Notes under the pieces: generated by a model
Told to the model about the DNA's origin: nothing
Seen by the model: the letters and a program-made list of their open reading frames with translations, nothing else
The model's database searches: none
Shown: one piece after another, positions 3,001 through 49,763 of the stretch
How positions within the stretch are numbered: position 1 is the first letter of the stretch
Layout: the number at the start of each line of letters is the position of its first letter
Translations under genes and position numbers: made by a program
IMG/VR virus record: IMGVR_UViG_3300045988_120652
Direction: 5' to 3' (one strand)
Length of the DNA: 64,000 bases
DNA from: a virus

Positions 3001-5854
3001 GAACGATCAGAAACGTGCTTGGCGCGAGGATTTACAGCAGAAGCAAGACCAGGCGAAAGCTATCATGGACGATGTGGATAACTACTACGACCGTCAGATT
3101 AACGCTAAGATTGCTCAAGCCATATCTCTTAATATGGACGAAGCCGAGCAGAAGCAGTTTGTCCTTCCCTTGAAGCAAAACAGAGAAATAGTCCGTTCGC
3201 AGGTGCGTCTTGCTGTGGCTGGCAAGGAAAACAAGTGGGAGGATGCGAAGAAGATGATGGCTGCTGATATGGTGGAGCAAGCGGACGAAACAGGTGTGAA
3301 CCTTTCAAAGGATTTGCTTGACGGCATCTTAAACAACAACATTGAGGGCCTGCATAAGCTCATGGGGGTCTTGGGCAAAAATCTTGGCATGTCAATGAGT
3401 TCCATTACAGCGCAGATTTTTGCAAAATCCACTCGTAGCGAACAGGAACTTCTGAAGATGCAGTTCAAGCAGATGGAGGCTCGCCGTAAGATTGCTATGG
3501 AGCATGACTTTACGGGCATTGTTCAGCAGAACTCGTATGACAACTTCAACGAAATGGGGTATGCCGCGCCTACAAAGGAGGAGACTACTGTCACAAAGAA
3601 AATGGTAGACGGCAAGGAAGTTCTCGATACATCTGCTTTTGATAAGCGCAGGAAAGCCATCAAGGATATGTACGAGACAGCTCGCAAGAGTCTCGCCCAG
3701 CTCTATACCATTGATGTTTCAACAACGGATGGCAAAGGTATGCTAATGAAGATGCTGTTCGGGGATGACCCCGACGGCATGGCTGCTCGAATTAAAGCGT
3801 CGTTGGGCGAAAGCGAAGAAAGCTGGAAGGCGTTTTATCTGAATCTTATCCAGTATTCTGACGACTATGCCGCAGCCGAGAAGAAAAAATATGACGAAGC
3901 TAAGAGAATCACTGATTTTTGGTGGTCTTCCAATAAGCGCAATCTTGCCCAACAGGAACGCATACGCAAGATGCAGAACGAGAGCAATCTTTTCGGCAAG
4001 CGTACAAACCTCCTCTCTAATCTCGGTCTTGCCAATCTTACAGCCGACCCCGAGATAGAGCTGATGAAGGCTCGTATGCAAGCTGCCGAAGACTACTATG
4101 CCTTTGTGGAACGCAACACGAAGAACAAGCAGCTAATCGACGAGGCAGAACGTGCCCGTCAGGAAGCCGAGCTTGCTTATGTTAATCAGATGGCTACAGC
4201 AATGAAGTCGCGTCTCTCACAGATGAAGGAACTCGTGCAGCCTATCGAGAATTTCGGTGCTGCCGTAGGACAGGCTCTCGCAGAAATGCGCTATGATGCC
4301 GAGAGCGCAAACGACGCTATCAAATCTGCCCTTAAATCCATGCTTGAATCATGGGGTAAGATGGCTCTCAACGATGTCAACACACAGATGTGGAAAGCCA
4401 TTAATGACGCAGCAGCCAAGCGAGGTAAGGATAAGGCACAGCCCGATATTGAAGCAGCTCGTGCGAACGCAAAAGTCAATTATACCGACTTCAGCGGTAT
4501 CGACTGGCATAATTTTGGCACAGAGTCTAATCCGTTGTGGGTACGCTGGACTGGTGACCATTACGAGAATAAATCGGGCGATGCTGTCTATACCAAGGAG
4601 GATGGCACACCGTTGCCTAACCCCGATGGCAGTGTTCCTCAGTCTAACGAACCTCCAAGAGCATGGAAAAAACGCCATCCCGACGGAACCATTGACGACT
4701 ATAACAAGGAAATAAAAAGCCTTGGCGGGCAGATGGGCACGTCGATGGCAGAACAGACTGGCACTGCCGTAGCCGGTGCCGTTACCGGAAATAGTGGTTT
4801 TGGCGATGCTGCCGCTGGTATTGCCATGAGTGGTGCGGATGCTCTTCTTAACGCTCAGATTAAAAAACCTTCAAAGAGCGAAAAAGAAAAGAAGAACCAA
4901 CTCAAGGAAGAGAAGAAACATCAAAAAGACCTTACCAAGGAAACAAAGAAAGGTCTCTCTGACCGTGAGAAGGCTACCGACAAGGGAGTTAAGAATATCA
5001 CAAAGACAACCGAGCAGGGCAATGACGAACAAAGCAAGGGTACGGAGTTGGCGCAAAAAGGATTGCTTGCAGGAACGGAAACCTTCTTGAACACTTCTTT
5101 CCAACTGAAACAAAAGAACAATAACGAACAGGCAAAGGCTGATGCGGATCTTGCAGAACAGCAGATGACGTTCTCTATAGCTGGTGCTATTGGTAAGTGT
5201 TTCCAATTCTTAGGTCCGATTGCAGGACCTATTGCAGCAGCTGTAGTAATGTCAACCCTTACGGGATTGATGCAGTGGGCATTAAGTTCGGCTTTCAATA
5301 AGAAGAAAAGTTCGTCCAAAGGTCCAAATACGAAGGTTGTTTCCGGTATGCTCACCTACGATTCCGGCAACGTGCAGGACCTCCGTCCGTTCGTAGGCAA
5401 CGATGGCAGTCTCTATTGGGCAACCGAGGACAACAAGCCACACAACGGTGTGTCGCTCCTCACACAGCCTACGGCCACTACCATTAACGGGCATCCGTCC
5501 CTGGTAGCCGAGAATGGTCCCGAGCTGGTAATCGGACGTGAGACCACGCAAGCAATGATGATGAACAATCCTCAGTTGCTCAAGGCTCTCGTAAATTACG
5601 ACCGCAACTATTCCGGTCGCCGAGCTTATGACAACGGCAATATTGCGGAATCATCCGCCACAATCGCCCCACAGCTGTCCGCAACTGATGAAATGTTATC
5701 TGCACAAGCCAATACTAATATTGCGCTCCTGCAAGCCGTAAACACGCTCCTGCAACGCTTGGAGCAGCCTATCGAAGCCAAGATTGATATGTATGGCCGT
5801 GGCAAACTCTACGACAGCATGACAAAGGCTAATCAGTTTATGAAGAACAAGTGA
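8..5854 (+). CDS. Tail tape measure protein (~1948 aa). The frame is open to the window edge, so the N-terminus may lie upstream
   Basis: Very long ORF. The central region (ALKNLTAYVGLF...SGSLTDIRKVSGLT...LAQLAYEASKLGV...INVAIGEEMGEKALPSLLKM) resembles the TP901-type tape-measure core. It also has coiled-coil-like K/E/Q-rich stretches and hydrophobic segments. The many antisense ORFs inside it are taken as spurious. Confidence 0.85.
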   Translation: MKQVGDQMRLIEGQYVKIADGLKNVSNQSDQWLDKAIKQQRDLVGSLEKSDAGYQKNLSILKQLEAEEDRRKGKMGIVEARQTVTSQNASASDLRRAKTTLTEARDNTPTANTGDIAQYNKELQEIEKRLEAVSGKTQKASMSWKQMKQVLAEPNKASGEDIKRTMEVIQQKIQQLPAGSKYVADLRRQYSMLEQTLKGTRMSQSALNDILARSKQGKASLDELRRAYKQLEEELNQINTKSKEFADRQKSMKELKKNIDEVTGAANKQGGAWHTALKNLTAYVGLFAMFNKAKDLVTGAIKKNLEYSGSLTDIRKVSGLTMEQVKQLSTELAKIDTRTSVDGLAQLAYEASKLGVGKYGVEGMAQFVRAADKINVAIGEEMGEKALPSLLKMTEVLGLIPKMGLEKSIEAVGSSMFKLASTSTATSNDITEFAKRCTGVARTAGITTDQLLALGSAFSAQMASPEVAATAMSKFIVALQKNHNLIEKDLAIPAGTINSMYQAGNAMDAIVLILEKMKEKGNMNALGEIFKDVGGDGQRLISSMVTMAKNVDMLKDHLYESQEAFREATAVGKEYSMQQMSAIGILERANNLWEKAFVNPDGVDAVKGMAEWWYEMSKTMTSSPLLKGTLQIALQMVLWTLKGVATLLPVIIGYMASQGVYSGLRLLYQYLAALGMAGKAMFQYVRALFAANAAQSTLNKTMKLNPWIALASIIIGVAGAIYGYTQRAKEAAAAAKEAQRQANAWRETLGQAAVETENLKEKLKNYKRMMGEENLSQKERQGLISRFNRDFRSYIDNLGIEIKNVKDLRDHYSELAQEAEKATYYRMREQAKQQALPKLDNDVNTASNAVMANVEKLGLDKLGVKFEDIYRWVKAGMSAKDITMKLAKMLPKDKSGLFDGFNWKIGKHGYIYRDTYDKNRKAGPASDFQTQQQIAQMYSDNLWFVNAYRRRGNTLNQINKAYKNFVDEDYQSTPPETPGTLDNNAKDKDAIAEEKRRENDQKRAWREDLQQKQDQAKAIMDDVDNYYDRQINAKIAQAISLNMDEAEQKQFVLPLKQNREIVRSQVRLAVAGKENKWEDAKKMMAADMVEQADETGVNLSKDLLDGILNNNIEGLHKLMGVLGKNLGMSMSSITAQIFAKSTRSEQELLKMQFKQMEARRKIAMEHDFTGIVQQNSYDNFNEMGYAAPTKEETTVTKKMVDGKEVLDTSAFDKRRKAIKDMYETARKSLAQLYTIDVSTTDGKGMLMKMLFGDDPDGMAARIKASLGESEESWKAFYLNLIQYSDDYAAAEKKKYDEAKRITDFWWSSNKRNLAQQERIRKMQNESNLFGKRTNLLSNLGLANLTADPEIELMKARMQAAEDYYAFVERNTKNKQLIDEAERARQEAELAYVNQMATAMKSRLSQMKELVQPIENFGAAVGQALAEMRYDAESANDAIKSALKSMLESWGKMALNDVNTQMWKAINDAAAKRGKDKAQPDIEAARANAKVNYTDFSGIDWHNFGTESNPLWVRWTGDHYENKSGDAVYTKEDGTPLPNPDGSVPQSNEPPRAWKKRHPDGTIDDYNKEIKSLGGQMGTSMAEQTGTAVAGAVTGNSGFGDAAAGIAMSGADALLNAQIKKPSKSEKEKKNQLKEEKKHQKDLTKETKKGLSDREKATDKGVKNITKTTEQGNDEQSKGTELAQKGLLAGTETFLNTSFQLKQKNNNEQAKADADLAEQQMTFSIAGAIGKCFQFLGPIAGPIAAAVVMSTLTGLMQWALSSAFNKKKSSSKGPNTKVVSGMLTYDSGNVQDLRPFVGNDGSLYWATEDNKPHNGVSLLTQPTATTINGHPSLVAENGPELVIGRETTQAMMMNNPQLLKALVNYDRNYSGRRAYDNGNIAESSATIAPQLSATDEMLSAQANTNIALLQAVNTLLQRLEQPIEAKIDMYGRGKLYDSMTKANQFMKNK

Positions 5855-6031: not shown

Positions 6032-6694
6032 AAACTTCAGTCCCCAAAAGTCCAAAATCTCGAATTTTCGTAACTACCTAATAATCATGGACTTTATCTG
6101 AAGTCTACTCTTCAAAAGTCCAAAAATCTACTAATTCAGGCTACTACTATATATAAATTTCGCCAATTTTCTTTCTTTCCTATTTTCAAAACTCCCCAAC
6201 CCTAACAATATAATTAGTAGCATTAATGCCTATGGCGTAAATAGTTGATATTTAATAAGTTAAGGGGTATGAGAAAAGGCAACTAAGCGAGAGAAACACT
6301 ATAAAAATGGCCTTATTTCTACTATTCTTTATATATTTTTTGTTCTTTGCGCTCGTATAAGTATATAAAAAATTACCCCGTTTTTAAACTTTTAATAGAT
6401 AAATAGCGGAAAATCAGAAAGTTAAATCACTTTTTGAAAAATTCATTGGGGGGTCACGATGTGGATTTTGGGTGGACAGTAGAAGCGTTTTTCAAAATTA
6501 CGAACTTTTCAGTTTTCGGCGTTTTTTTGGAAAATGGACTCAAAGTTTAAAATTTGGACTTTTGGAGGCTGTAAAGTTCAAAACTAAACTTCAGACTTTG
6601 TACAGTTAAACAACGGTAAGAATTGTTGATAAATAAAATAAAAGTTAATAACAATAGTAAGAATTGTTTTTATCAATTATAATTATTAAATTTG
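6032..6694. repeat. AT-rich ORF-free region with iteron-like repeats (possible origin or early control region)
   Basis: CAAAAGTCCAAAA occurs at 6045-6057 and 6113-6125, and inverted at 6553-6565. AAACTTCAG occurs at 6032 and 6586 and inverted near 6097. GTAAGAATTGTT occurs twice (about 6615 and 6657). No ORF of 60 aa or more lies between 5909 and 6731. Confidence 0.4.
6687..6694 (+). promoter_or_regulatory. Bacteroidetes-type -7 promoter element TAAATTTG upstream of the 6732 gene
   Basis: Matches the TAnnTTTG consensus, 38 nt upstream of the ATG. Confidence 0.45.
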
Positions 6695-21395: not shown

Positions 21396-21779
21396 ATGGG
21401 AAGATATGCAACAAGGGCGACATTAAGGTATTATTGCGCCCAAGCCGACATCACGCTCTACCCCCATCGGCTCGATGGTGTCTCCTATCAGTATTGTGCC
21501 GGAGGATATGTCGTGAATGGCTATTTGGGACGTAGCAAGTCATGGTCTGATTTGAAATATTGTATGCAGCAAAAACTTATCTTTTTGCTAAAGTATGGCT
21601 CTGATGACAATCCTACGATATACAGCGATGGAACAGTTATAGAGTGGCACAAAGAGCCGCACGCAATTCTGCCGTTAGCCCAACCTCTTATCGACAACAA
21701 CGGCATGAAGATACGCACACTTTGGCCACCCGAATGTGACGAGGAATTACAGGATTACTACAATCTTCTTAAATCATAG
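21396..21779 (+). CDS. Hypothetical protein
   Basis: 127-aa ORF preceded by the 17-nt motif AACGAAAATATAGAGAA. Confidence 0.45.
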   Translation: MGRYATRATLRYYCAQADITLYPHRLDGVSYQYCAGGYVVNGYLGRSKSWSDLKYCMQQKLIFLLKYGSDDNPTIYSDGTVIEWHKEPHAILPLAQPLIDNNGMKIRTLWPPECDEELQDYYNLLKS

Positions 21780-21816
21780 CAAGCGATAAAGTATTAACGA
21801 AAATATAGAGAACATT

Positions 21817-22326
21817 ATGAGAACATTCAAATTCAGAGGCAAGTGTACAGATCCTAAGTACGATGGCAAAACGGCATGTGGCTCGCTGCTTTCTTTCCCC
21901 AATGGAGAGACAAAGATTTTTGAGCACGACCACGACAAGACGTTCAACTATTTCGGTGTTGACCCCGCGACCGTCTGCCAGTTCACCGGTTTCCTTGACA
22001 AGAACGGCAAGGAGATTTATGAAGGCGACGTGTTGCGGTCAGACGAATATCCTTATAGCTGCATCGGAGATAAAAAACGCGACAACTATTATGCCGTAGT
22101 TTATTACTGTGAGGAAGGAGCTTGCTTTGGCACTGTGACGGCCAAGAATCCCAGTTCTGACGTAAGAGGCATTTCAGACGGCATACTTGATGATGTAGAG
22201 CGAGAGAAAATGAAGACCTTCGAGGTTGTCGGCAATATCCATGAAGAGAAGTGGCAACAATACGGCGAATATTTTAAGACTGAAGAAGAAAAGGAGGCAG
22301 ACAATGATTTATGCAGAAGACCTTAG
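21817..22326 (+). CDS. YopX-family protein
   Basis: MRTFKFRGK...VCQFTGFLDKNGKEIYEGDVL matches the YopX hallmark (KFRxW... QxTGLxDKNGKxIYEGD). Confidence 0.7.
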   Translation: MRTFKFRGKCTDPKYDGKTACGSLLSFPNGETKIFEHDHDKTFNYFGVDPATVCQFTGFLDKNGKEIYEGDVLRSDEYPYSCIGDKKRDNYYAVVYYCEEGACFGTVTAKNPSSDVRGISDGILDDVEREKMKTFEVVGNIHEEKWQQYGEYFKTEEEKEADNDLCRRP

Positions 22327-22765
22327 AATAGGCGACATTGTGCAGATAAACAAAGACTGCATGTTTCCGAAAGACACGTTGTGCATCGTTACCGAAATCC
22401 ATCCCGACCGACAGTATGAAGACAAGAAGGGAGTTGTCAGTCTGAAGGCTGTCAACGACGACGATGACGGACCATGGGGGGCTTGGTGCTGTAATATTGA
22501 AGGCGTGCCCGTCACGCCCGAAATACTTCGCAATAATGACTTTAAGGAAGAGGTCGAGGGCAAGTACTTCACAAGACCAATTAAAGCCAGATTTGGCAGT
22601 TCCCTTGCCAGATATTTGGTTGTAGAACGGAAAAAATACGCTTGGGCAATATTCATAAAGTATTACAACGTGACAGGCTTTGCACTCTTATGTCATATAA
22701 AGTACGTTCACGAACTACAGCTCGTCCTCAAGATAATGAAATTTAGTCCGGAAATTAAAGTATAG
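22304..22765 (+). CDS. Hypothetical protein (start chosen at ATG 22304 within ORF 22226..22765)
   Basis: An in-frame ATG preceded by AAGGAGG. This start overlaps the YopX gene end by 23 nt. Confidence 0.45.
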   Translation: MIYAEDLRIGDIVQINKDCMFPKDTLCIVTEIHPDRQYEDKKGVVSLKAVNDDDDGPWGAWCCNIEGVPVTPEILRNNDFKEEVEGKYFTRPIKARFGSSLARYLVVERKKYAWAIFIKYYNVTGFALLCHIKYVHELQLVLKIMKFSPEIKV

Positions 22766-22769
22766 CTCT

Positions 22770-22876
22770 ATGAAAGCAAAAAACAAGGTGCTGCTTGACA
22801 GAAACGAGAGTTCTCGCCCGCCCTTCTAGCCACCGACTACAAATGCCTACACTGTATAATGATTGAATATGATTAA
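22770..22876 (+). pseudogene. TRD-like mini-ORF U1 (frame-disrupted)
   Basis: ATG 22770 opens MKAKNKVLLDRNESS..., which stops at TAG 22827. Another frame reads EFSPALLATDYKCLHCIMIEYD*, a paralog of U4. It is not connected to an in-frame ATG. Confidence 0.5.
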
Positions 22877-23003
22877 GCAGCATCCATTCGACGATTTTCA
22901 TCAGCGCATCTATTGGAGCGGAACCTGTATAGGAACCGTAACTCAACAATGGGGTAATCCTGCGCCTCGTCACGGATGGAGATTAATGATTGAATATGAC
23001 TGA
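22869..23003 (+). CDS. TRD-like mini-ORF U2 (44 aa)
   Basis: MIKQHPFDDFHQRIYWSGTCIGTVTQQWGNPAPRHGWRLMIEYD*. The ATG lies 5 nt before the U1 stop. RIYxxxGxxxTV resembles the C5-MTase variable-region pattern. Confidence 0.55.
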   Translation: MIKQHPFDDFHQRIYWSGTCIGTVTQQWGNPAPRHGWRLMIEYD

Positions 23004-23313
23004 CCCTCACTACAAACGCGGCACCATCCGCAAGGATGGCAAGCTGTATGGCCGCTATCCCGACGGATCGCTCTACCGCATCTACTCCTCCACCGACCTA
23101 CCTTTCCTACAGTTGGTGGACCGAGCGGGCGAGACGTTCCTACGCATACGCCAAGCCACCGAGCTGGGCTACACCGACTGTCCCTGCCCTGGAGCCGCCG
23201 ACCTAAGTTATCCGTCCTCGGCTCTGAGGCGTAGTCGCACAGTCGGGAGGGGTAAGCTCGTAAACGCTCTGACCGCTGCAAGTGGCGGAATTTGCGTGTT
23301 TGTTGAATTATAA
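22996..23313 (+). CDS. TRD-like ORF U3 (105 aa)
   Basis: IRQATELGYTDCPCPGAADLSYPSSALRRSRTVGRGKLVNALTAASGGICVFVEL* resembles the ATKxGY...PxSxTRRGRVGxxxxxTLT block seen in the variable region of many Dcm-type enzymes. Confidence 0.55.
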   Translation: MTDPHYKRGTIRKDGKLYGRYPDGSLYRIYSSTDLPFLQLVDRAGETFLRIRQATELGYTDCPCPGAADLSYPSSALRRSRTVGRGKLVNALTAASGGICVFVEL

Positions 23314-23328
23314 AAGGAGAAATAAATT

Positions 23329-23700
23329 ATGATTATAACGAATGATTGGCGGCTCTGGCTCGCATCAATGTTGTTTACGTTTGTCGTAACAATTTTGTTT
23401 ATGGCTTACATTTGGTGGACAGAGCGAAAGCTAAAGAAAGAGATAAAAAATGATAGAGAAATAGACTATCAGAATTGTGATGGGTATTTCTTGTGTGTGT
23501 TTACCAAAGGTGGTGGATGCGATTTGCACAGAGCCTCGGATGTCAAGCAGGTTGTTTCGTCTGTAAATAAAGATTACATCAACGTAATAATGACAGATGG
23601 TGAAGTAACGCATTATGAAGATGTCGTATCGTATGAGTTCAAACACGTTTTAGATTTGTCCTTGTATAATTTGAATACAGTAAAAAGAGTAGCTGAATAG
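23329..23700 (+). CDS. Membrane-anchored hypothetical protein
   Basis: One N-terminal TM segment (WRLWLASMLFTFVVTILFMAYIWW). The gene interrupts the TRD array. Confidence 0.45.
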   Translation: MIITNDWRLWLASMLFTFVVTILFMAYIWWTERKLKKEIKNDREIDYQNCDGYFLCVFTKGGGCDLHRASDVKQVVSSVNKDYINVIMTDGEVTHYEDVVSYEFKHVLDLSLYNLNTVKRVAE

Positions 23701-23729
23701 GCTTGTAGAACATTTAACTAATAAAATTT

Positions 23730-24101
23730 ATGAAAAGAGAAAAACGACTGCCCGATGTGCTGTTAATGTCGGCTAAAGCATCCACCTTAATGTCAAACTC
23801 AACCAAGGACGCTTGCATCTGCGTCGAGTCTGACGAACAAAGTGTAAGTTTTAAGGACGAACCGTCGGAAGGTGTAACGATGGATATTACAGCCGAGTAT
23901 CGCAACATCGTTCAGTTGTGGCACCCTGCCACAGAAAAGCCTCATTGCATAGGTCAACTTCTCTGTTGGTGTTACGACAGAACATTCTTCGTACACAACC
24001 ATTACAGCCATGACGATGAAAATTGGCATTTATTCATCAGCACTAACAACATAAAGCGTTATTGCTATATTTCCAATTTGGAACCCGAATGGTTTATTTG
24101 A
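23730..24101 (+). CDS. Hypothetical protein
   Basis: 123-aa ORF. Its stop lies 2 nt before the U4 ATG. Confidence 0.45.
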   Translation: MKREKRLPDVLLMSAKASTLMSNSTKDACICVESDEQSVSFKDEPSEGVTMDITAEYRNIVQLWHPATEKPHCIGQLLCWCYDRTFFVHNHYSHDDENWHLFISTNNIKRYCYISNLEPEWFI

Positions 24102-24102
24102 G

Positions 24103-24234
24103 ATGACTGACATTAAGATATCCGTGCATCCCGTTAGCCATCGGCTCGAATGGCGAGGATGGGGTGATTTCTCGCCCTCCCTTCGAGCCACCGACTACAA
24201 ATGCCCACACTGTATAATGATTGAATATGACTAA
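24103..24234 (+). CDS. TRD-like mini-ORF U4 (43 aa)
   Basis: MTDIKISVHPVSHRLEWRGWGDFSPSLRATDYKCPHCIMIEYD*. SPSLRATDYKxP matches the sPTLtAxDYKxP pattern of C5-MTase target-recognition regions. Confidence 0.6.
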   Translation: MTDIKISVHPVSHRLEWRGWGDFSPSLRATDYKCPHCIMIEYD

Positions 24235-24355
24235 TCTTGACTTCTACCAATATCCTCGTGGCAAAAACGGGGGGGTACTAAACACTATGATTTGTCCGAC
24301 CGTTACTATATCTTCATGGCAGCACAACTATTTTCTGATTGAAGAATATGATTGA
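24227..24355 (+). CDS. TRD-like mini-ORF U5 (42 aa), contains a G7 tract
   Basis: MTNLDFYQYPRGKNGGVLNTMICPTVTISSWQHNYFLIEEYD*. The G7 run at 24269-24275 is in frame. The ATG lies 5 nt before the U4 stop. Confidence 0.55.
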   Translation: MTNLDFYQYPRGKNGGVLNTMICPTVTISSWQHNYFLIEEYD

Positions 24356-24488
24356 CATCCAACCCTTAAATGTCTGTATGGGAGGAATAGCAGTAACACT
24401 GAATACACGATACGAGCGACTTTGCATTGAGCATTTGATGTCACTTGCCCACTTTCCGAGGACAGGCGTAATGATAGAATACGAATAA
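24348..24488 (+). CDS. TRD-like mini-ORF U6 (46 aa)
   Basis: MIDIQPLNVCMGGIAVTLNTRYERLCIEHLMSLAHFPRTGVMIEYE*. It ends 10 nt before the motif IX-X ORF. Confidence 0.55.
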   Translation: MIDIQPLNVCMGGIAVTLNTRYERLCIEHLMSLAHFPRTGVMIEYE

Positions 24489-24498
24489 CAGTAACTAT

Positions 24499-24936
24499 AT
24501 GATCACAAAACTCAATTTCACCGACCGCACCATCAAGAGCTATGCCATCCGCAAGCTCACGCCCAAGGAGTGTTTCCGCTTGATGGGCGTTCGCGACAAC
24601 GTAATCGGCACGATGCAGAGCAGCAATGCCCAGGCAGCCGAACGTCTGCCCGACTGGAAGGGCAAGGGTAAACCCGAAGACATGGCTATATCTGCATCAC
24701 AGCAGTACAAGCAAGCTGGAAACAGCATCGTGGTGGACGTGTTGGCCCACATCTACGAGCAGCTTTTCTACCCCGCCCCGCCCAAGCCTCGCCCTGGCGA
24801 ACAGCTCACGCTCTTCGACGACCTCGAAGACTCGCTGCCCGCTTTGCCGCCCCCCCCGCAGCCGACAAGAACGAGGAGAAGATATTCCTCACCACGTTCT
24901 CCGGCTACGACTCTCAGCTCATGGCAGCCGACGTGA
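24499..24936 (+). CDS. C5 DNA methyltransferase C-terminal module (motifs IX and X) plus a Pro-rich linker; the reading frame is lost at the C8 tract
   Basis: IRKLTPKECFRLMGV is motif IX and QQYKQAGNSIVVDVL is motif X. After ...DDLEDSLPALPPPP, the tail (QPTRTRRRYSSPRSP...) looks like out-of-frame sequence. Confidence 0.8.
   Translation: MITKLNFTDRTIKSYAIRKLTPKECFRLMGVRDNVIGTMQSSNAQAAERLPDWKGKGKPEDMAISASQQYKQAGNSIVVDVLAHIYEQLFYPAPPKPRPGEQLTLFDDLEDSLPALPPPPQPTRTRRRYSSPRSPATTLSSWQPT
24850..24857 (+). repeat. C8 homopolymer at the junction between the motif IX-X and motif I-VIII reading frames
   Basis: Read as GCCG-CCCCCCCC-GCAG. One extra C would give ...LPALPPPPAADKNEEKIFLTTFSGYDSQLMAADV..., fusing the two ORFs in frame. 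Confidence 0.8.
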
Positions 24937-25811
24937 TACGCGAGTGGCATCCCGACTTCCGATGGACGTGCAAGGGATGGAGCGACATCGACAAATACGC
25001 CTGTCAGATGCACAACCTCGTCTTCCCTCAGTTTGCCGACTGCGCCCTGGGCGACATCACCAAGATTGACTGGCACGAGGTGAAACGCTCGCTCAAAGGC
25101 CGCGAGGTTGACCTCTTCACCTATTCCTCGCCCTGCCAGGACATCAGTCAGGCTGGCAAGCAGATGGGTTTGCAGGAGGGCAGCGATACCCGAAGCGCAC
25201 TGCTTTGGCGTGTGGCGGATGCCGTGGAGGTGCTTCGCCCGAAGTATCTCTTGCAGGAGAACGTGGCGGCACTGGTAAGCCAGAAGTTCATGCCCGACTT
25301 TCAGAAGTGGCTCGACAAACTCTCCTCGCTCGGCTATGTCTCTCGCTGGGCTCGTCTTAACGCCAAGAACTACGGTGTGCCGCAGAACCGCGACCGTGTG
25401 TTCTGCCTCTCCATGCGCCGTGACGTGGCCTTCGACTATCAGTTTCCCGAACCCTTCGAGCTGCTTATCCGACTGGAGGATGTGCTCGAAGAGGAAGTGT
25501 CCGACCGCTATTTCCTCAAGGATGATGCCGTGAGCAAGTTCCTCAAGGCAAACGACTCTGACAATGCCTTATTCCTTCAATTCGACCTGCCACCGACACA
25601 TGAGGCGGCAATGTTCCTCAAGACATGGCTCACGCTGCGCATGAACACTTTCAACGGATGGGAGAGGGATTTGGACGAACTGCGCGATTGCATCGAGAAC
25701 GAGCGAGATGTATTAAACAGCGATTTTGCAAGTTTCAGCGAGTATCATACATTCCCTTGCGAAGGTTTTGAGGAATTGTTTAAGGAGAATATGAAGAGGA
25801 AGAAGGAATGA
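24921..25811 (+). CDS. C5 DNA methyltransferase catalytic module (motifs I-VIII). Motif I lies upstream of the first ATG in the same open frame
   Basis: This frame is open back to at least 24783 and encodes KNEEKIFLTTFSGYDSQL (motif I, 24897-24917) before ATG 24921. It continues with WSDIDKYA (II), SSPCQDISQAG (IV, catalytic PCQ), TRSALLW (V), LLQENV (VI) and NYGVPQNRDRVF (VIII). A ~100-aa tail of unknown function follows, with no motif IX/X. Confidence 0.85.
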   Translation: MAADVIREWHPDFRWTCKGWSDIDKYACQMHNLVFPQFADCALGDITKIDWHEVKRSLKGREVDLFTYSSPCQDISQAGKQMGLQEGSDTRSALLWRVADAVEVLRPKYLLQENVAALVSQKFMPDFQKWLDKLSSLGYVSRWARLNAKNYGVPQNRDRVFCLSMRRDVAFDYQFPEPFELLIRLEDVLEEEVSDRYFLKDDAVSKFLKANDSDNALFLQFDLPPTHEAAMFLKTWLTLRMNTFNGWERDLDELRDCIENERDVLNSDFASFSEYHTFPCEGFEELFKENMKRKKE

Positions 25812-25999
25812 GAACTGACAACCCACCCGACCGTGTAATCCGTATCATAGCTGATATGATTAGGGGTGGTAGGTTGCTCACCTGCCCTGCCTCGATGTTC
25901 AGCGCAGAACGTTTCAACGGAGCATTTCACGGCATAGCAATAACCATCATGTCGCGCACCGATTGCAGCGACGTATTCTTTGTAGCAGTAGAATTATGA
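25808..25999 (+). CDS. TRD-like ORF U7 (63 aa)
   Basis: ATGA start/stop overlap with the catalytic module. ...RFNGAFHGIAITIMSRTDCSDVFFVAVEL* has the same VEL ending as U3 and U16. Confidence 0.5.
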   Translation: MRTDNPPDRVIRIIADMIRGGRLLTCPASMFSAERFNGAFHGIAITIMSRTDCSDVFFVAVEL

Positions 26000-26142
26000 T
26001 ACTCCCATTTAACACAGAATCCGATGGTACATCACACACTATTAAATCCCAATATTTCAAAATGGGAGCAGCGAATGTGCTCGCCATTTCGTTTGACGGT
26101 GCCAACTTCAAAGCCACTGGCGCAATCGTGATATATGAATAA
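25996..26142 (+). CDS. TRD-like mini-ORF U8 (48 aa)
   Basis: MILPFNTESDGTSHTIKSQYFKMGAANVLAISFDGANFKATGAIVIYE*. TxKSQYxKMGxxN resembles a known C5-MTase TRD pattern. ATGA overlap with U7. Confidence 0.55.
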   Translation: MILPFNTESDGTSHTIKSQYFKMGAANVLAISFDGANFKATGAIVIYE

Positions 26143-26287
26143 CAACCCTCGCCCCATTATCCTCGGCTCCTACAGCCCCTCGCAGAACGGCATCATCGTG
26201 TCGCCACACGGCATAGCCTTGTGCATAGTCGGGGGAGGTAAGGGTCACGACGTGGATAAACCGAAAATATTGATAGAGTATGATTAA
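26135..26287 (+). CDS. TRD-like mini-ORF U9 (50 aa)
   Basis: MNNNPRPIILGSYSPSQNGIIVSPHGIALCIVGGGKGHDVDKPKILIEYD*. It resembles SQxxRVYxxxGxxPTLxAxxGGxxxxxPxIL. Confidence 0.6.
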   Translation: MNNNPRPIILGSYSPSQNGIIVSPHGIALCIVGGGKGHDVDKPKILIEYD

Positions 26288-26463
26288 TCGTTCCGTCCTC
26301 GTCCAACTACCGCACCGAGGAAGCCAAAGCCTTCCGTCAAGAGCATGGCGACCGAGGAGGGTGTAAATACGGCGACAAGTATCACCGCCCAAGTCCGTGG
26401 CCGTAGAGCAATTCGATAACAACAGTAACAAAAGACAACCTATTATGCTTAACATTCATCTGA
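26280..26463 (+). pseudogene. TRD-like unit U10 (degenerate)
   Basis: The TRD-like frame reads NYRTEEAKAFRQEHGDRGGCKYGDKYHRPSPWP(TAG)SNSITTVTKDNLLCLTFI*. It is a paralog of U11, but the ATG (26280) is in another frame and there is an in-frame TAG at 26404-26406. Confidence 0.45.
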
Positions 26464-26621
26464 TACACGAAGCCAGAACCGAACACGCGAAAGCCGTGCG
26501 TCGCTTAATCGGCACTAACGACTTCCGTGATAAGGAATGGCATCTGCGACAAGGATGTTGGATGCAATGTATAGGTACTTCCCTCACCACTGACAATCTG
26601 ATTGCAATATGTTACGATTAA
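26397..26621 (+). CDS. TRD-like ORF U11 (alternative start ATG 26445)
   Basis: ...HEARTEHAKAVRRLIGTNDFRDKEWHLRQGCWMQCIGTSLTTDNLIAICYD* fits the RTExAKxxR...R...LTTxxKDNL class of Dcm variable regions. Confidence 0.5.
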   Translation: MAVEQFDNNSNKRQPIMLNIHLIHEARTEHAKAVRRLIGTNDFRDKEWHLRQGCWMQCIGTSLTTDNLIAICYD

Positions 26622-26648
26622 TAGTACAAATAATAAACAAAAAGAAAT

Positions 26649-26942
26649 ATGAGTCTTTACGCAGAAAAAATAATAGTCAGAGACCACGAACGTAATGAAG
26701 ATGTTGATGTGGCTTTCGGGCACAACACTATTTGCGACTGTGTTACTATCCGCCGAGGAGAAGATACTGTTTGTTTGTCGGACGACGAGTTCGATGCCCT
26801 TGCAGTGTTGATGATACGCGACTTTGTATCGAGGGAGAGTATCGAAAACGCAATAGAGCTAACCAGTACAGACAAGAAGAACCCATATCGCATATTCATA
26901 GCACGAACTGTGGATGATGAAAAATGGAATGGGGATGATTGA
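26649..26942 (+). CDS. Hypothetical protein embedded in the TRD array
   Basis: 97-aa acidic ORF with no TRD-like pattern. It ends ...GDD*, with the U12 ATG 5 nt before its stop, which is the same junction geometry. Confidence 0.45.
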   Translation: MSLYAEKIIVRDHERNEDVDVAFGHNTICDCVTIRRGEDTVCLSDDEFDALAVLMIRDFVSRESIENAIELTSTDKKNPYRIFIARTVDDEKWNGDD

Positions 26943-27106
26943 CTTTCGCATAGCAGCCTTCCGAGGCCGTGCCCCCGATAATCCGTCCAACCGCAAGCAT
27001 CCCTCCAACGGACGCTTCTTTCAGCGAATGGAGATAAACGGGGGGTACAACCAACACCCTCACATCAGTAGGCAAAGACAATATGGTATTGATAACGTAT
27101 GATTAA
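26935..27106 (+). pseudogene. TRD-like unit U12, out of frame at a G6 tract
   Basis: MIDFRIAAFRGRAPDNPSNRKHPSNGRFFQRMEINGG runs up to G6 (27040-27045). The next frame continues TTNTLTSVGKDNMVLITYD*. Seven Gs would give one intact ORF of the RGRxxxNP...QRxE...NTLTSVxKDN class. Confidence 0.55.
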
Positions 27107-27247
27107 ACAAATCCCTTTCGTACAACGCATATCCCAGCTCTGCCCACGTCGGGGTATTCCACGGCATTGTCCGCCCGCTACGACGGATGGGCAGGGCTCT
27201 ACGATGAACACGGACAGCACGCCATTGTATTGATAGAATATGAATAG
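27099..27247 (+). pseudogene. TRD-like unit U13, out of frame at a G4 tract
   Basis: The ATG frame reads MIKQIPFVQRISQLCPRRG (like U2). The TRD-like continuation GYSTALSARYDGWAGLYDEHGQHAIVLIEYE* (like U6) is in another frame. One extra G at 27151-27154 would join them. Confidence 0.45.
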
Positions 27248-27380
27248 GCATACACTAAATTGTCCGTCCGGCATCTGCTGCGTCCTGACATCGCATTACG
27301 CAAGAGAAGGATGGGCGAATATAGCAAGCAATACAACATCACAATGCAAAGCACCCGCAGTATTGATAGAATATGATTGA
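27240..27380 (+). CDS. TRD-like mini-ORF U14 (46 aa)
   Basis: MNRHTLNCPSGICCVLTSHYAREGWANIASNTTSQCKAPAVLIEYD*, a paralog of U8. Confidence 0.55.
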   Translation: MNRHTLNCPSGICCVLTSHYAREGWANIASNTTSQCKAPAVLIEYD

Positions 27381-27543
27381 CAAGTATTACATCGGATGGG
27401 TACGCAGCGGCAAGGGCCTCGTAAAGAGACTACCGCGCAAACGGATAGCCAATGCCGTGACAACATCGCCACCAGGCTGCTTTGCCGACCCTCGCGATGG
27501 ACTGGGCAACACCACACCGCATATAGTATATGAATATGAATGA
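27373..27543 (+). CDS. TRD-like mini-ORF U15 (56 aa)
   Basis: MIDKYYIGWVRSGKGLVKRLPRKRIANAVTTSPPGCFADPRDGLGNTTPHIVYEYE*. Confidence 0.5.
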   Translation: MIDKYYIGWVRSGKGLVKRLPRKRIANAVTTSPPGCFADPRDGLGNTTPHIVYEYE

Positions 27544-27700
27544 CACCGCACGCATCTTCGTAGTCGGCATGATGCAGACACCACCCTACGACCGAATGTT
27601 TGAGCAGAGCTGCCGCGTGTATTCCGCAAAAGGAATATCGCCTACGCTGCATACGCAAGGGGGGGGGGATAGAGAGATAAAGGTATTAGTGGAACTATAA
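27530..27700 (+). CDS. TRD-like mini-ORF U16 (54-56 aa), contains a G10 tract
   Basis: M(NM)NDTARIFVVGMMQTPPYDRMFEQSCRVYSAKGISPTLHTQGGGDREIKVLVEL*. RVYSxxGISPTLxxxGGG is a classic Dcm variable-region pattern. The G10 run (27659-27668) is in frame and encodes GGG. Confidence 0.6.
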   Translation: MNMNDTARIFVVGMMQTPPYDRMFEQSCRVYSAKGISPTLHTQGGGDREIKVLVEL

Positions 27701-27712
27701 TACACAGAAATT

Positions 27713-27856
27713 ATGGAAGAAATGTTATTGAGCGACTATATCGCTATGCTCCAGAAATTAAAGGAACAGCATGGCAACATAATAGTGAGAAGTGATAGCG
27801 GATGCGATTTGTCCGCTTACTATTCTGACTGGGATGATGTGATAGTAGTGAATTAG
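27713..27856 (+). CDS. Small hypothetical protein (47 aa, below the ORF-track cutoff)
   Basis: MEEMLLSDYIAMLQKLKEQHGNIIVRSDSGCDLSAYYSDWDDVIVVN*. It fills the gap between U16 and the next gene. Confidence 0.35.
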   Translation: MEEMLLSDYIAMLQKLKEQHGNIIVRSDSGCDLSAYYSDWDDVIVVN

Positions 27857-27876
27857 CAAAAAACAAAAGATTGAAC

Positions 27877-28245
27877 ATGAGAGAATTTGTGAGAAAGGCA
27901 TTGCGAAACTACGGCTACCGATTTCTTGGGTATCAGAGCGGTAGCTACATTTTTGGCAAACCGCTTGGCTACGGCATACTTAGTGCGGAAATGCGCGAGG
28001 GTGAAAACTCCGTAAGTGTCATGCTGATGGTTAAAGGAAACATGAAGGACGGCAAGCGCCCGAATCTGCTATGGCAGGAGACAAGCCGGGACTTTCCCGA
28101 AGAACATGACGAACAGAAGATGTACGAGGCGTTGGTGCAAGCTGTTGCCGACTGTGAGGCAGACATCTTCTCTAAAACGCCTGTGGCTTGGTTGCAAAAC
28201 CGAGACGTGAGATACGACTTCGAGGAGAATGTCCATATCGAGTAA
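27877..28245 (+). CDS. Hypothetical protein
   Basis: 122-aa ORF starting at the ATG within ORF 27871..28245. Confidence 0.45.
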   Translation: MREFVRKALRNYGYRFLGYQSGSYIFGKPLGYGILSAEMREGENSVSVMLMVKGNMKDGKRPNLLWQETSRDFPEEHDEQKMYEALVQAVADCEADIFSKTPVAWLQNRDVRYDFEENVHIE

Positions 28246-28379: not shown

Positions 28380-28916
28380 ATGGCGATTAAAGCTAAAGTG
28401 ATAGTAAGAAGCAATTCTATCACGAAAGAAAAGGTTGCAAGTGCCAACATCGTTGACTTGCAGCCGATGTCATTCACCGAGTTTTGCGACTACATGGCGC
28501 AGGACTCTACAGTAGGCGTGGCGGACGTGATGGCCGTGATGACGCAGTTGGAGAAGAAGTTGCCGCTTCTGCTCGCTCTGGGCACCAAGGTGCAGGTGTC
28601 TGCCGAGGGCATGGTGGTACGCCCTACCGTTAGCGGCTCGCTCACTCAGAGCCAGCTCAAGGCGAAGCTCGAAGCTCGCAAGGCAGAGGGCGAGGATGTT
28701 GACGTGAACCGCGAGATTACCGCTGCCGACCTCACCACTAAGGACCTCACAGCAGGCGTGGCCATCGACTTCTCAAGGAAGTTCAACGCTGCCTTCGCAC
28801 AGCACGGAATGTTCAAGCGTGTGGGCGACGCTGCTGCAACGAACGCTCCGTCGGCTCCCGGAACAGGTGGCGAGCAGAAGCCGGATGGAACACCGGGCGG
28901 CGAGGTGGACGCATAA
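28380..28916 (+). CDS. Bacteroidetes-type HU-like DNA-binding domain protein
   Basis: SFTEFCDYMAQDSTVGVADVMAVMTQLEKKLPLLLALGTKVQVSAEGM resembles the HU_2-type domain common in Bacteroidales. The C-terminal tail is low-complexity Gly/Pro. Assignment is from memory of the family pattern. Confidence 0.5.
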   Translation: MAIKAKVIVRSNSITKEKVASANIVDLQPMSFTEFCDYMAQDSTVGVADVMAVMTQLEKKLPLLLALGTKVQVSAEGMVVRPTVSGSLTQSQLKAKLEARKAEGEDVDVNREITAADLTTKDLTAGVAIDFSRKFNAAFAQHGMFKRVGDAAATNAPSAPGTGGEQKPDGTPGGEVDA

Positions 28917-49194: not shown

Positions 49195-49202
49195 GCGCAG
49201 CC

Positions 49203-49236
49203 GGGTGCAACCCAGTGCAGCGCGGTGCAACCGCGC
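49203..49236 (+). promoter_or_regulatory. Hairpins just downstream of VR (GGTGCAACC x2); candidate DGR homing-enhancing structure
   Basis: GGGT-GCA-ACCC (49203-49213) and GCGCGG-TGCAA-CCGCGC (49220-49236), 22-55 nt after the end of the VR homology. Confidence 0.5.
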
Positions 49237-49423
49237 CATGTCTTTGGCAATCAGAAACAAAATTAGTAACTTTATAGTGGTTTAAAAGATAGAATAAAAT
49301 GAATCAAGACAAAATATTTCCTCAAAAACAGGACAAGCTCAGCATGAGGGCCGAAGCCTCTGAAGCCTGCATGAGAGGTGACGCTATCCATATAGATGAT
49401 AGCTAAAGAGGTTGGTGTCTCCG

Positions 49424-49537
49424 AGCCGTGCGCTTTCGTGGCAATGCGAATAATGCGAATTGTTCGCCTCGGTATCTGAATGCGAACAACTCGGCTGCTA
49501 ATACGAACGTGAATAATGGCGGTTCTGCCCAACGTCG
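49424..49537 (+). repeat. DGR template region (TR)
   Basis: Adenine-rich counterpart of VR, lying in non-coding sequence 226 nt upstream of the RT gene. Confidence 0.9.
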
Positions 49538-49763
49538 GGCATCATAAATGATGCAGAACTAAGAACACGGGAACACCACTCTCGCTCAGGAGAAGCAGAA
49601 AATATCAAAGACAAGGGATGTGAGCGTAGCACGATGGCTGTACGTGATGCGGCGAACGTGACCGAGAGACATCCTGACGGGCAGACAGTCCCGTCAACCT
49701 TTTAAGCCCGACACTGAATATCAACAGCGGAGAAATCCGCATAAAAACATATATATAACAAAC

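Follow-up and report, generated by a model that had tools for sequence, protein, structure and literature searches.

The two reading frames at positions 24499-25811 of the phage record IMGVR_UViG_3300045988_120652 are a frameshift-inactivated (OFF) allele of a circularly permuted 5-methylcytosine DNA methyltransferase core, broken by a slippage-prone run of eight C. The whole stretch of DNA analysed, 64,000 nt, is referred to here as the window, and it derives from a roughly 100-kb tailed gut phage, probably of Prevotella. The core has no target-recognition domain (TRD) of its own, and it appears to take its DNA-recognition modules from about 14 separate mini-genes lying beside it, several of which carry similar slippery runs. 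We place the probability of this reading at roughly 0.7, with the action of the TRDs in trans being inferred rather than demonstrated.

A first-pass annotation, made from the sequence alone, had described a C5-methylase with motifs IX-X before I-VIII, split at a C8 tract and without an in-frame start before motif I. Every sequence statement in it was checked, and the observation was confirmed. The core consists of the following parts:

24499-24936, + strand: ORF1, the N-terminal part of the permuted core, with a beta-hairpin, motif IX (24547-24591), motif X (24706-24735) and the Pro-rich linker; after 24857 it runs out of frame into a nonsense tail ending at TGA 24934-24936.
24850-24857, + strand: C8 homopolymer in the disordered interdomain linker, flanked by G on both sides; this is the frameshift site, +2 nt relative to the in-frame 6-nt state.
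24858-25811, + strand: frame-3 continuation of the core, with motif I (24885-24917), IV (25125-25157), VI (25248-25265), VIII (25383-25403), the post-VIII region and a C-terminal three-helix bundle (about 25599-25808); there is no TRD.

ORF1, in frame 1, reads MITKLNFTDRTIKSYAIRKLTPKECFRLMGV...YKQAGNSIVV, followed by the Pro-rich stretch and the nonsense tail. A Pfam search matched its residues 12-89 to positions 270-322 of the 324-position PF00145 profile, which correspond to motifs IX-X. Frame 3 is open from 24672 to 25811, encodes FLTTFSGYDSQ (motif I), SSPCQDISQAG (IV), LLQENV (VI) and QNRDRVF (VIII), and matches PF00145 positions 24-216. The Pfam E-values are 3e-40 and 1e-7. All six motifs, including the AdoMet-binding motif I, the PCQ catalytic cysteine, ENV and QxRxR, are present, and the motif residues are nearly invariant in a 149-sequence alignment. 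Since ORF1 codons start at positions of the form 3n+1 and frame-3 codons at positions of the form 3n, one added C (C9) or two removed (C6) would join the frames. The first ATG, GTG or TTG in frame 3 is the ATG at 24921, downstream of motif I, and the core stop codon overlaps the next mini-ORF by ATGA at 25808-25811.

The permutation is real. In 71 of 80 related viral loci the same two halves form one continuous ORF of 432-467 aa starting MITKLNF, and more than 120 protein clusters cover 100% of the fused query. The core evolves under purifying selection (dN/dS 0.135). In the window as sequenced, the single polypeptide is interrupted by the C8 frameshift. A phmmer search of the PDB aligned residues 190-351 to M.MpeI 113-277 and residues 15-49 to M.MpeI 333-367. 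An AF2 model of the homologue P0117 built with 46 close homologues had a pLDDT of only 41, but adding a second, 40%-identical permuted lineage raised it to 78, with a pTM of 0.74. In this model only the linker, the catalytic loop and a fused TRD are disordered, and the Foldseek top hits are M.HhaI, M.MpeI and M.HaeIII at E about 1e-13. The N-terminus lies just before motif IX and the C-terminus after the post-VIII region, so that the permutation point falls in the variable region. These data also bear on the alternative that the two ORFs are remnants of two tandem methylase genes, the end of one followed by the start of the next. Tandem full-length genes do give the same IX-X then I-VIII adjacency in Bacillus phage Deep Blue, which, like similar hits, looked permuted at first, and this arrangement is a plausible evolutionary origin for the permutation. 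However, as a description of the present gene this alternative is refuted, because in relatives the two halves form one conserved ORF with a conserved linker, evolve under purifying selection and are predicted to fold as one domain, and no second I-VIII or IX-X exists within the array.

The frameshift is also real. The linker normally reads CCG CCC ACC GCA, and in one sublineage an A-to-C change made a pure C6 run, which now slips and is hypermutable. One of the checks set beforehand was tract-length heterogeneity, and it was found between assembled genomes: with the same flanks and in independent samples, C5 occurs at two loci, C6 at a locus encoding an intact 438-aa protein, C7 at another locus, and C8 in the window and at a locus identical to it. 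C5, C7 and C8 are all out of frame. It is very unlikely that the split reflects a sequencing or assembly error, although the site is a homopolymer, the source contig (NODE_76_length_102237_cov_8.97) has only about 9x coverage, and two other frameshifts in the window also sit in G runs. The same 145-aa frameshift product is recorded on 5 contigs from ENA, Logan and JGI, including a SPAdes assembly, and other samples, one at 34x, carry C5 and C7 with the same flanks, while another carries an intact C6. These are short-read SPAdes-type assemblies, in which an 8-nt homopolymer is normally called correctly, and the large ORFs elsewhere in the window are intact. On the other hand, the C tract is not conserved as a feature of the family. 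None of the 80 IMG/VR relatives has 5 or more C at this site, most having the interrupted CCCACC instead, so the tract is a lineage-specific accident that may simply be decay. Moreover, 9 of 80 relatives carry other null mutations in the core (nonsense, or a second poly-C tract), which could reflect relaxed selection rather than adaptive switching.

As sequenced, motif I is read in the wrong frame by ORF1 and lies upstream of any start codon in its own frame, so that no active enzyme is made unless the tract changes length. Programmed recoding, by a -1 ribosomal shift on C CCC CCC or by RNA-polymerase slippage, could in principle make the full-length enzyme at a set low level, the split then being a regulatory design. 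Proline tRNAs can re-pair perfectly one base back on a C run, and the shift needed is exactly -1. Nevertheless, we consider this improbable: the tract is absent from almost all relatives, where the in-frame state is the norm, C5 and C8 need one shift whereas C7 needs another, and the 103 nt downstream show no unusual RNA structure (z = -0.9). A functional two-subunit methylase of the M.AquI type, with the IX-X peptide and the I-VIII peptide assembling non-covalently, is even less likely. Split C5-methylases exist and their fragments can complement (PMC5944983), and the break falls at the linker that joins the natural C- and N-termini, but neither product contains motif I. Related I-VIII-only genes turned out to be deletion remnants with no IX-X nearby, such as P0288, which looked like a naturally split gene with its own ATG.

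Only 16 residues precede motif IX, and after the post-VIII region the chain ends in three helices. Fourteen mini-ORFs of 42-105 aa (22869-24488 and 25808-27700) are TRD homologues, although for the unit at 25808-25999 this rests on position and shared termini only. They are arranged as follows:

22869-23003, + strand: TRD mini-gene (44 aa, ends MIEYD), family 11, in 21 loci and always upstream of the core, dN/dS 0.08; the junction is ATGACTGA.
22996-23313, + strand: TRD mini-gene (105 aa, ends VFVEL), with a blastp match to the TRD region (residues 297-349) of the Streptococcus phage Javan6 multispecific methylase, E 4e-9; 165 homologue clusters, some free-standing and some inside PF00145 proteins; family dN/dS 0.105.
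24103-24234, + strand: TRD mini-gene (43 aa, ending ...SPSLRATDYKCPHCIMIEYD), family 9, in 22 loci, dN/dS 0.19.
24227-24355, + strand: TRD mini-gene (42 aa), with a G7 tract at 24269-24275, in frame here and G6, G7 or G8 among relatives; blastp match to Javan6 TRD 269-297, E 5e-5.
24348-24488, + strand: TRD mini-gene (46 aa, ends VMIEYE), family 7, in 23 loci, dN/dS 0.23; the last unit before the core, which starts 10 nt downstream.
25808-25999, + strand: mini-gene of the array (63 aa, ends VAVEL), overlapping the core stop codon, family 5, in 24 loci, dN/dS 0.10.
25996-26142, + strand: TRD mini-gene (48 aa, ends IVIYE), family 12, in 20 loci, dN/dS 0.19.
26135-26287, + strand: TRD mini-gene (50 aa, ending ...GGGKGHDVDKPKILIEYD), family 0, in 55 loci, dN/dS 0.09.
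26445-26621, + strand: mini-gene of the array (58 aa, ends IAICYD), family 8, in 23 loci, dN/dS 0.17.
26914-27102, + strand: TRD mini-gene broken in this genome, with an out-of-frame G6 tract at 27040-27045; by comparison with a related locus, G8 gives ...INGGGTTNTLTS...IEYE; the tract is G6, G7, G8 or G9 among 13 loci; family 10, dN/dS 0.18.
27099-27247, + strand: TRD mini-gene broken in this genome, with G4 at 27152 where intact relatives have G5, its halves lying in different frames (27099-27233 and 27107-27247); family 1, intact in 47 loci, dN/dS 0.12.
27240-27380, + strand: TRD mini-gene (46 aa, ends VLIEYD), family 6, in 24 loci, dN/dS 0.29.
27373-27543, + strand: TRD mini-gene (56 aa, ends IVYEYE), 61% identical (E 9e-21) to the C-terminal 56 aa of P0117, which is a natural in-frame fusion of a core and a unit of this family.
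27530-27700, + strand: TRD mini-gene (56 aa, ending ...GISPTLHTQGGGDREIKVLVEL), the last unit, with a G10 tract at 27659-27668, in frame here and G8, G10 or G11 among relatives; blastp match to Javan6 TRD 239-268, E 8e-7, and tblastn hits in the methylase genes of Bacillus phages H2, rho11s, phi3T and SPbeta.

Thus, three units align to three different TRDs of the Javan6 enzyme (QBX31077). Homologues of the 105-aa unit inside PF00145 proteins lie upstream of the motif IX-X match. A Pfam search with ten units and a PDB phmmer search with the 105-aa unit found nothing, and megablast of the module against GenBank phages gave no match. There are about 20 unit families, each with a fixed length and a fixed side of the core, and with dN/dS of 0.07-0.29. 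Every unit ends in a stop codon and the next starts in another frame, with 141 of 148 adjacent unit pairs overlapping by 8 or 4 nt. A promoter and terminator scan gave nothing above the shuffled background. Natural fusions of units to the core exist at the C-terminus (P0117) and at the N-terminus (the homologue P0298, at locus L101). Some more distant relatives (P0298, P0312 and the 484-570 aa forms) carry extra N-terminal sequence before motif IX, which we read as TRDs, and a 365-aa TRD-less core in a distant lineage has a free TRD ORF just upstream.

The homopolymers of the module look like switches. All three G/C runs of 7 nt or more in the window lie in this module, and such runs are 4.5-fold denser in the module than in the flanks across the loci. 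Of 31 orthologous tract sites, 30 vary in length. Assigning ON and OFF states to each tract from open-frame lengths was too noisy to be used, but a frame-independent lower bound indicates that at least 41% of alleles must be out of frame. By a crude classifier, broken units were no more frequent in genomes with a dead core than in those with an intact one (36% against 38%).

Altogether, the permuted order in relatives, the in-frame C6 and out-of-frame C5, C7 and C8 alleles, and the loss of motif I from both products of the window are established by our analysis. The remaining steps, including methyl transfer to cytosine itself, are inferred. In the intact state the core is a protein of about 437 aa, and in the inferred view its sequence specificity would come from the 14 flanking mini-genes, each a stand-alone TRD translated by stop-start coupling. 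Each would dock non-covalently on the core, probably through its conserved C-terminal beta-strand (I/L-I/V-E-Y-D/E) and the highly conserved N-terminal hairpin of the core. This would make a multispecific methylase protecting phage DNA from many host restriction enzymes, and the homopolymer tracts would let single specificities, or the whole system, switch on and off, which could be a hedge against methylation-dependent restriction. However, AF2 did not fold or dock the fused TRD of P0117 (pLDDT about 30), leaving no structural evidence for docking, and the closest engineered analogue, a class-J permutant of M.MpeI or M.SssI split into [X-I-VIII] plus [TRD], was inactive (PMC5944983).

An unlikely but not negligible alternative is that the mini-ORFs are silent TRD cassettes that recombine into the core at the conserved ...ATTGAATATGA... 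junctions, only covalently fused TRDs being active, or else that the variable helical C-terminal domain of the core is its real specificity element. The fusions at both ends of the core, the conserved junction sequence, the differing array content between relatives and the inactivity of the engineered split agree with this view, as does the occurrence of the helical domain in several unrelated sequence types. Yet each cassette keeps its own start and stop, overlaps its neighbour as coupled genes do, and is under purifying selection in its own frame. Most genomes carry a TRD-less core under purifying selection, which would be useless under this model. In addition, all cassettes point the same way, so recombination would delete rather than switch them, and the enrichment of frame-switching tracts is most easily explained if the ORFs are translated.

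The interpretation given in the first-pass annotation, a permuted C5-methylase split by a frameshift at a C homopolymer that one more C would repair, is supported, but three details need correcting. First, it placed the TRD at the C-terminus, where the downstream units begin. Natural permutants of the M.BssHII type mostly have the TRD at the N-terminus (TRD-IX-X-I-VIII, type H; PMC5944983), whereas here the chain has none and TRD-like mini-ORFs lie on both sides. Second, it regarded the permuted order as known for only a few enzymes, but 27 REBASE entries were listed in 2018 (PMC5944983), and in our search all 120 best relatives of a second lineage have motif X before motif IV. Third, the ancestral in-frame state is 6 nt (CCCACC or C6), so the window carries +2 nt and is not simply one C short.

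The natural permuted C5-methylases (M.BssHII, M.Alw26I, M2.Eco31I, M.Esp3I and M2.BsaI) also have IX-X before I-VIII in one polypeptide and a permutation point in the variable region between VIII and IX. They keep a TRD in the chain and belong to restriction-modification systems, whereas here motif IX starts at residue 17, the C-terminus is a helical bundle, and the gene is, judged by the Pfam labels of its neighbouring genes, a phage orphan. In the multispecific phage enzymes (Bacillus phages SPR, phi3T, rho11s, H2 and SPbeta, and Javan6) one core is served by several tandem TRDs of about 40-60 aa, with the same likely protective role, but all TRDs lie in one polypeptide between VIII and IX in canonical order. 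M.AquI (alpha/beta) and engineered fragment pairs of M.SssI, M.MpeI and M.BspRI provide a precedent for assembly from separate polypeptides cut near the TRD, although known natural splits give halves that each carry catalytic motifs. Full-text literature searches, which covered few subscription journals, found no description of a subunit consisting of a C5 TRD alone, of free-standing C5 TRD genes or of this locus type. Phase-variable methylases (phasevarions, poly-G Type IIG and Type III mod genes) and the hypermutable poly-G tracts of Campylobacter phages (Sorensen 2021, cited in PMC12823448) likewise have a coding homopolymer that shifts the frame, with ON and OFF alleles coexisting among close relatives. 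The known methylase cases are bacterial genes and the known phage tracts are in receptor-binding genes, whereas here they sit in a phage methylase core and, more widely, in its individual TRD genes, with reversible switching remaining an inference. Type I HsdM/HsdS works in a similar way, with a catalytic subunit lacking specificity and a separate, exchangeable and sometimes phase-variable specificity subunit, but it is an unrelated N6-adenine, gamma-class enzyme with a different TRD fold, and the resemblance is an analogy.

In its fullest form, this reading is possible but somewhat less likely than not: this group of gut phages would encode a combinatorial 5mC methylation system of a kind not yet described, in which a TRD-less permuted subunit is programmed in trans by up to about 14 mini-proteins. 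Each mini-gene, and in some lineages the core, would carry its own hypermutable G/C tract, and a phage population would continuously sample different subsets of specificities, or none. Phage methylases are a main counter to restriction-modification, and multispecific enzymes have been the textbook example of modular DNA recognition since the 1980s. A core taking its recognition domain as a separate small protein would be a new way to build a C5-methylase, and would give a natural toolkit of about 20 or more portable modules for engineering targeted cytosine methylation. Switches on single specificities would be a case of phase variation in a phage anti-defence function, making the trade-off between classical and methylation-dependent restriction directly testable. 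For annotation, these loci are easily misread as pseudogene debris, and the 40-60 aa ORFs are often left uncalled. Locus L090 looked like a distant permuted relative but is a canonical-order gene with a G7 frameshift.

We found that the run CCCCCCCC lies at 24850-24857 between two G residues and separates two reading frames, which together carry the motifs of a C5-cytosine methylase. The relevant features are as follows:
24499-24936, ORF1, which translates to MITKLNFTDRTIKSYA-IRKLTPKECFRLMGV (motif IX) and, further on, YKQAGNSIVV (motif X), followed by a Pro-rich stretch and, after the C run, by a nonsense tail that ends at TGA 24936
24850-24857, the run of eight C
24672-25811, the open frame one base back, which after the C run reads AADKNEEKI-FLTTFSGYDSQ (motif I), SSPCQDISQAG (motif IV), LLQENV (motif VI) and QNRDRVF (motif VIII)
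24921, ATG, the first possible start codon of this second frame, located after motif I
Pfam PF00145 matches ORF1 to profile positions 270-322 and the second frame to positions 24-216. One more C, or two fewer, joins the frames. Hence, the observation made in the first-pass annotation, that a methylase core with motifs IX-X ahead of I-VIII is split at a C8 tract, is confirmed, and all of its statements on the sequence are correct.

The permuted order is the normal state of this gene. A scan of viral contigs with the conceptually repaired protein returned 143 relatives, of which 80 loci at 69-98% identity were kept. In 71 of these 80 loci, the two halves form one ORF of 432-467 aa beginning MITKLNF. 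A large protein database holds more than 120 clusters of 435-449 aa that cover 100% of the query, one of them named 'MAG TPA: Cytosine specific methyltransferase [Caudoviricetes sp.]', and the dN/dS of the core is 0.135. Against solved structures, residues 190-351 align to M.MpeI 113-277 and residues 15-49 to M.MpeI 333-367, and thus the order is inverted relative to a canonical enzyme. When the alignment included a second permuted lineage at about 40% identity, AlphaFold2 gave a confident model of the close homologue P0117 (pLDDT 78, pTM 0.74). The predicted structure comprises an N-terminal beta-hairpin (residues 2-19), the IX-X helices, a disordered linker (about 100-120), the Rossmann-type I-VIII domain, and a C-terminal three-helix bundle (366-437, pLDDT above 90). 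A Foldseek search with this model returned M.HhaI, M.MpeI and M.HaeIII. Of note, the C-terminal helical bundle (core residues about 370-430 in loci L001-L080; window 25626-25778) occurs in several unrelated sequence types between conserved ...FLKT and FKENMERKK... anchors. This mosaic variation could co-vary with the repertoire of small ORFs around the core described below, or it could itself influence specificity. The permuted family is large: all 120 best relatives of the second lineage have motif X before motif IV, and many are only 362-385 aa long. Some relatives returned by the search with the permuted core of L101, a locus of a more distant lineage, carry an intein with a LAGLIDADG domain (PF14890, PF14528; proteins P0332, P0337, P0352 and P0373, 734-738 aa). 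A simple pattern search did not find the catalytic PCQ motif in these proteins, which would fit an insertion at that point.

Relatives read TTG CCG CCC ACC (or ATC, TCC) GCA GCC at the position of the C8 tract, where the window has two extra bases, and none of the 80 viral relatives has five or more C at this site. The exact 145-aa frameshift product was found on five contigs in ENA, Logan and JGI, one of which is a SPAdes contig whose 6.4-kb stretch fetched around the gene is identical to window 21499-27936. Moreover, the 90% cluster of ORF1 contains other truncated N-terminal halves. We examined the DNA of these and of an intact relative. Apart from minor differences in the window's own flank, the flanks match (GCTTTGCCG-Cn-GCAGCCGAC), whereas the tract is C5 in two assemblies (one at 34x coverage), C7, C8 in the window, and C6 in the relative that encodes an intact 438-aa protein. 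A further allele (L097) has lost one base from the interrupted tract. This is the pattern of a slippage-prone homopolymer, which arose by an A-to-C change in one sublineage. It is very unlikely to be a single assembly artefact, but it is not a conserved design of the family either.

A second clade has a different poly-C tract inside motif IX (T-P-P-E-C), at about 6062-6069 of the respective loci. There, C8 is intact in two loci (L063, L069), and C7, or C7 with an extra A, is frameshifted in three (L066, L068, L070). Six more relatives have nonsense mutations, and two of seven MAG copies are also broken. Null alleles of the core are therefore common in nature. In addition, locus L092 (2501-3454) is a deletion derivative in which only the I-VIII half remains, with a new ATG; IX-X is absent and the downstream units have degenerate C-termini. 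As for programmed -1 frameshifting, no downstream RNA structure that would suggest it was found.

On the other hand, the surroundings of the core change the picture. The core is embedded in a one-directional array of mini-ORFs, five upstream (22869-24488) and nine downstream (25808-27700), each of 42-105 aa. Nearly all of them end in I/L-I/V-E-Y-D/E or V-E-L followed by a stop, and the next ATG lies inside TATGAnTRA or TTATGA. Across the related loci, 141 of 148 adjacent pairs overlap by 8 or 4 nt, which is the signature of translational coupling. The units fall into about 20 families, each with a fixed length and a fixed side of the core, found in 5-55 loci and showing dN/dS of 0.07-0.29, whereas a spurious ORF family gave 0.76. 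These data indicate that the units are real genes. Three further ORFs of 97-123 aa that do not look like TRDs are inserted inside the array (23329-23700, 23730-24101 and 26649-26942), the first of which looks hydrophobic at its N-terminus.

The units are also TRDs. The 105-aa unit aligns to residues 297-349 of the multispecific methylase of Streptococcus phage Javan6 (E 4e-9), a segment that lies between motif VIII and motif IX, and two other units align to two other TRDs of the same enzyme (E 5e-5 and 8e-7). The last unit also hits the methylase genes of Bacillus phages H2, rho11s, phi3T and SPbeta. Moreover, an exhaustive profile-free search with the 105-aa unit found 165 clusters, some of which are free-standing proteins of 54-130 aa, while others lie inside PF00145 proteins, upstream of the motif IX-X match.

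The core itself has no TRD, as only sixteen residues precede motif IX and the chain ends in helices. Natural fusions exist in both positions. P0117 (491 aa, nine member sequences) is a core with a unit of the 27373-27543 family fused in frame at its C-terminus, and in the more distant lineage of L101 and protein P0298 a TRD is fused in front of IX, while further free units flank the gene. A 365-aa TRD-less core in yet another lineage has a free TRD ORF (...NTTPYVLIEYEI*) immediately upstream. Conversely, phage contig L100 carries at 3900-5400 an array of about ten TRD mini-ORFs, several of them frameshifted, next to RecT and YqaJ genes, with no methylase core within 9.6 kb; the core is either elsewhere or lost. 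The simplest reading is that the mini-proteins supply recognition to the core in trans. While the permuted gene, its frameshift and the TRD homology of three of the units are shown by our sequence analysis, methylase activity and the action of the units in trans are inferred, and there is evidence against the latter: the closest engineered analogue was inactive (PMC5944983), and AlphaFold2 did not place the fused TRD of P0117. The same study shows that M.BssHII-type permutants mostly carry their TRD at the N-terminus, so the comparison drawn in the first-pass annotation, in which this order would place the TRD at the C-terminus, needs that correction. The central interpretation, a permuted methylase interrupted by a frameshift at the C tract, is nonetheless supported, and the window carries an OFF allele. 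The layout TRDs-IX-X-I-VIII-TRDs is what fusion of two tandem multispecific genes would leave, and tandem genes of that kind exist in Bacillus phage Deep Blue. Of greater interest than the frameshift is the TRD-less permuted core with its array of individually frameshift-prone TRD mini-genes, although the novelty of this free-standing TRD architecture is provisional, as our literature search left out most subscription journals.

The only three G/C runs of 7 nt or more in the 64-kb window are all inside the module, namely the C8 of the core and the G7 and G10 of two units, and two further units are broken at shorter G runs. The tracts inside the TRD mini-genes, with their lengths in relatives, are as follows:
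24269-24275, G7 (G6, G7 or G8 in relatives)
27040-27045, G6, which breaks its unit (G6 to G9 in relatives)
27152-27155, G4, which breaks its unit (G4 or G5 in relatives)
27659-27668, G10 (G8, G10 or G11 in relatives)
Across the loci, runs of 7 nt or more are 4.5 times denser in the module than in the flanks. Of 31 orthologous tract sites within 4.5 kb of the core, 30 vary in length, and whatever the correct frame at each site, at least 86 of 209 alleles (41%) must be out of frame. The only invariant tract is a G7 inside the core of one clade. This looks like contingency-locus behaviour applied to single specificities. Hypermutable poly-G tracts are known in receptor-binding genes of Campylobacter phages (Sorensen 2021, cited in PMC12823448) and in bacterial methylases, but we found no report of them in phage TRD genes.

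The window belongs to a tailed phage, with a tape-measure gene and a head-maturation protease, and the closest MAG copies of the locus are binned as Prevotella. A YopX-family gene (21817-22326, PF09643) lies upstream of the array, and a gene resembling an HU-HIG DNA-binding protein (28380-28916), so assigned only by analogy with L092, lies downstream. The window also carries a classical diversity-generating retroelement (46495-51152), which comprises the following parts:
46495-49194, ORF with the variable repeat at its 3' end
49068-49181, variable repeat
49424-49537, template repeat
49764-51152, reverse transcriptase ORF (phrog_1423)
The two repeats are 83% identical, and within the repeat the differences fall at positions where the template copy has A.
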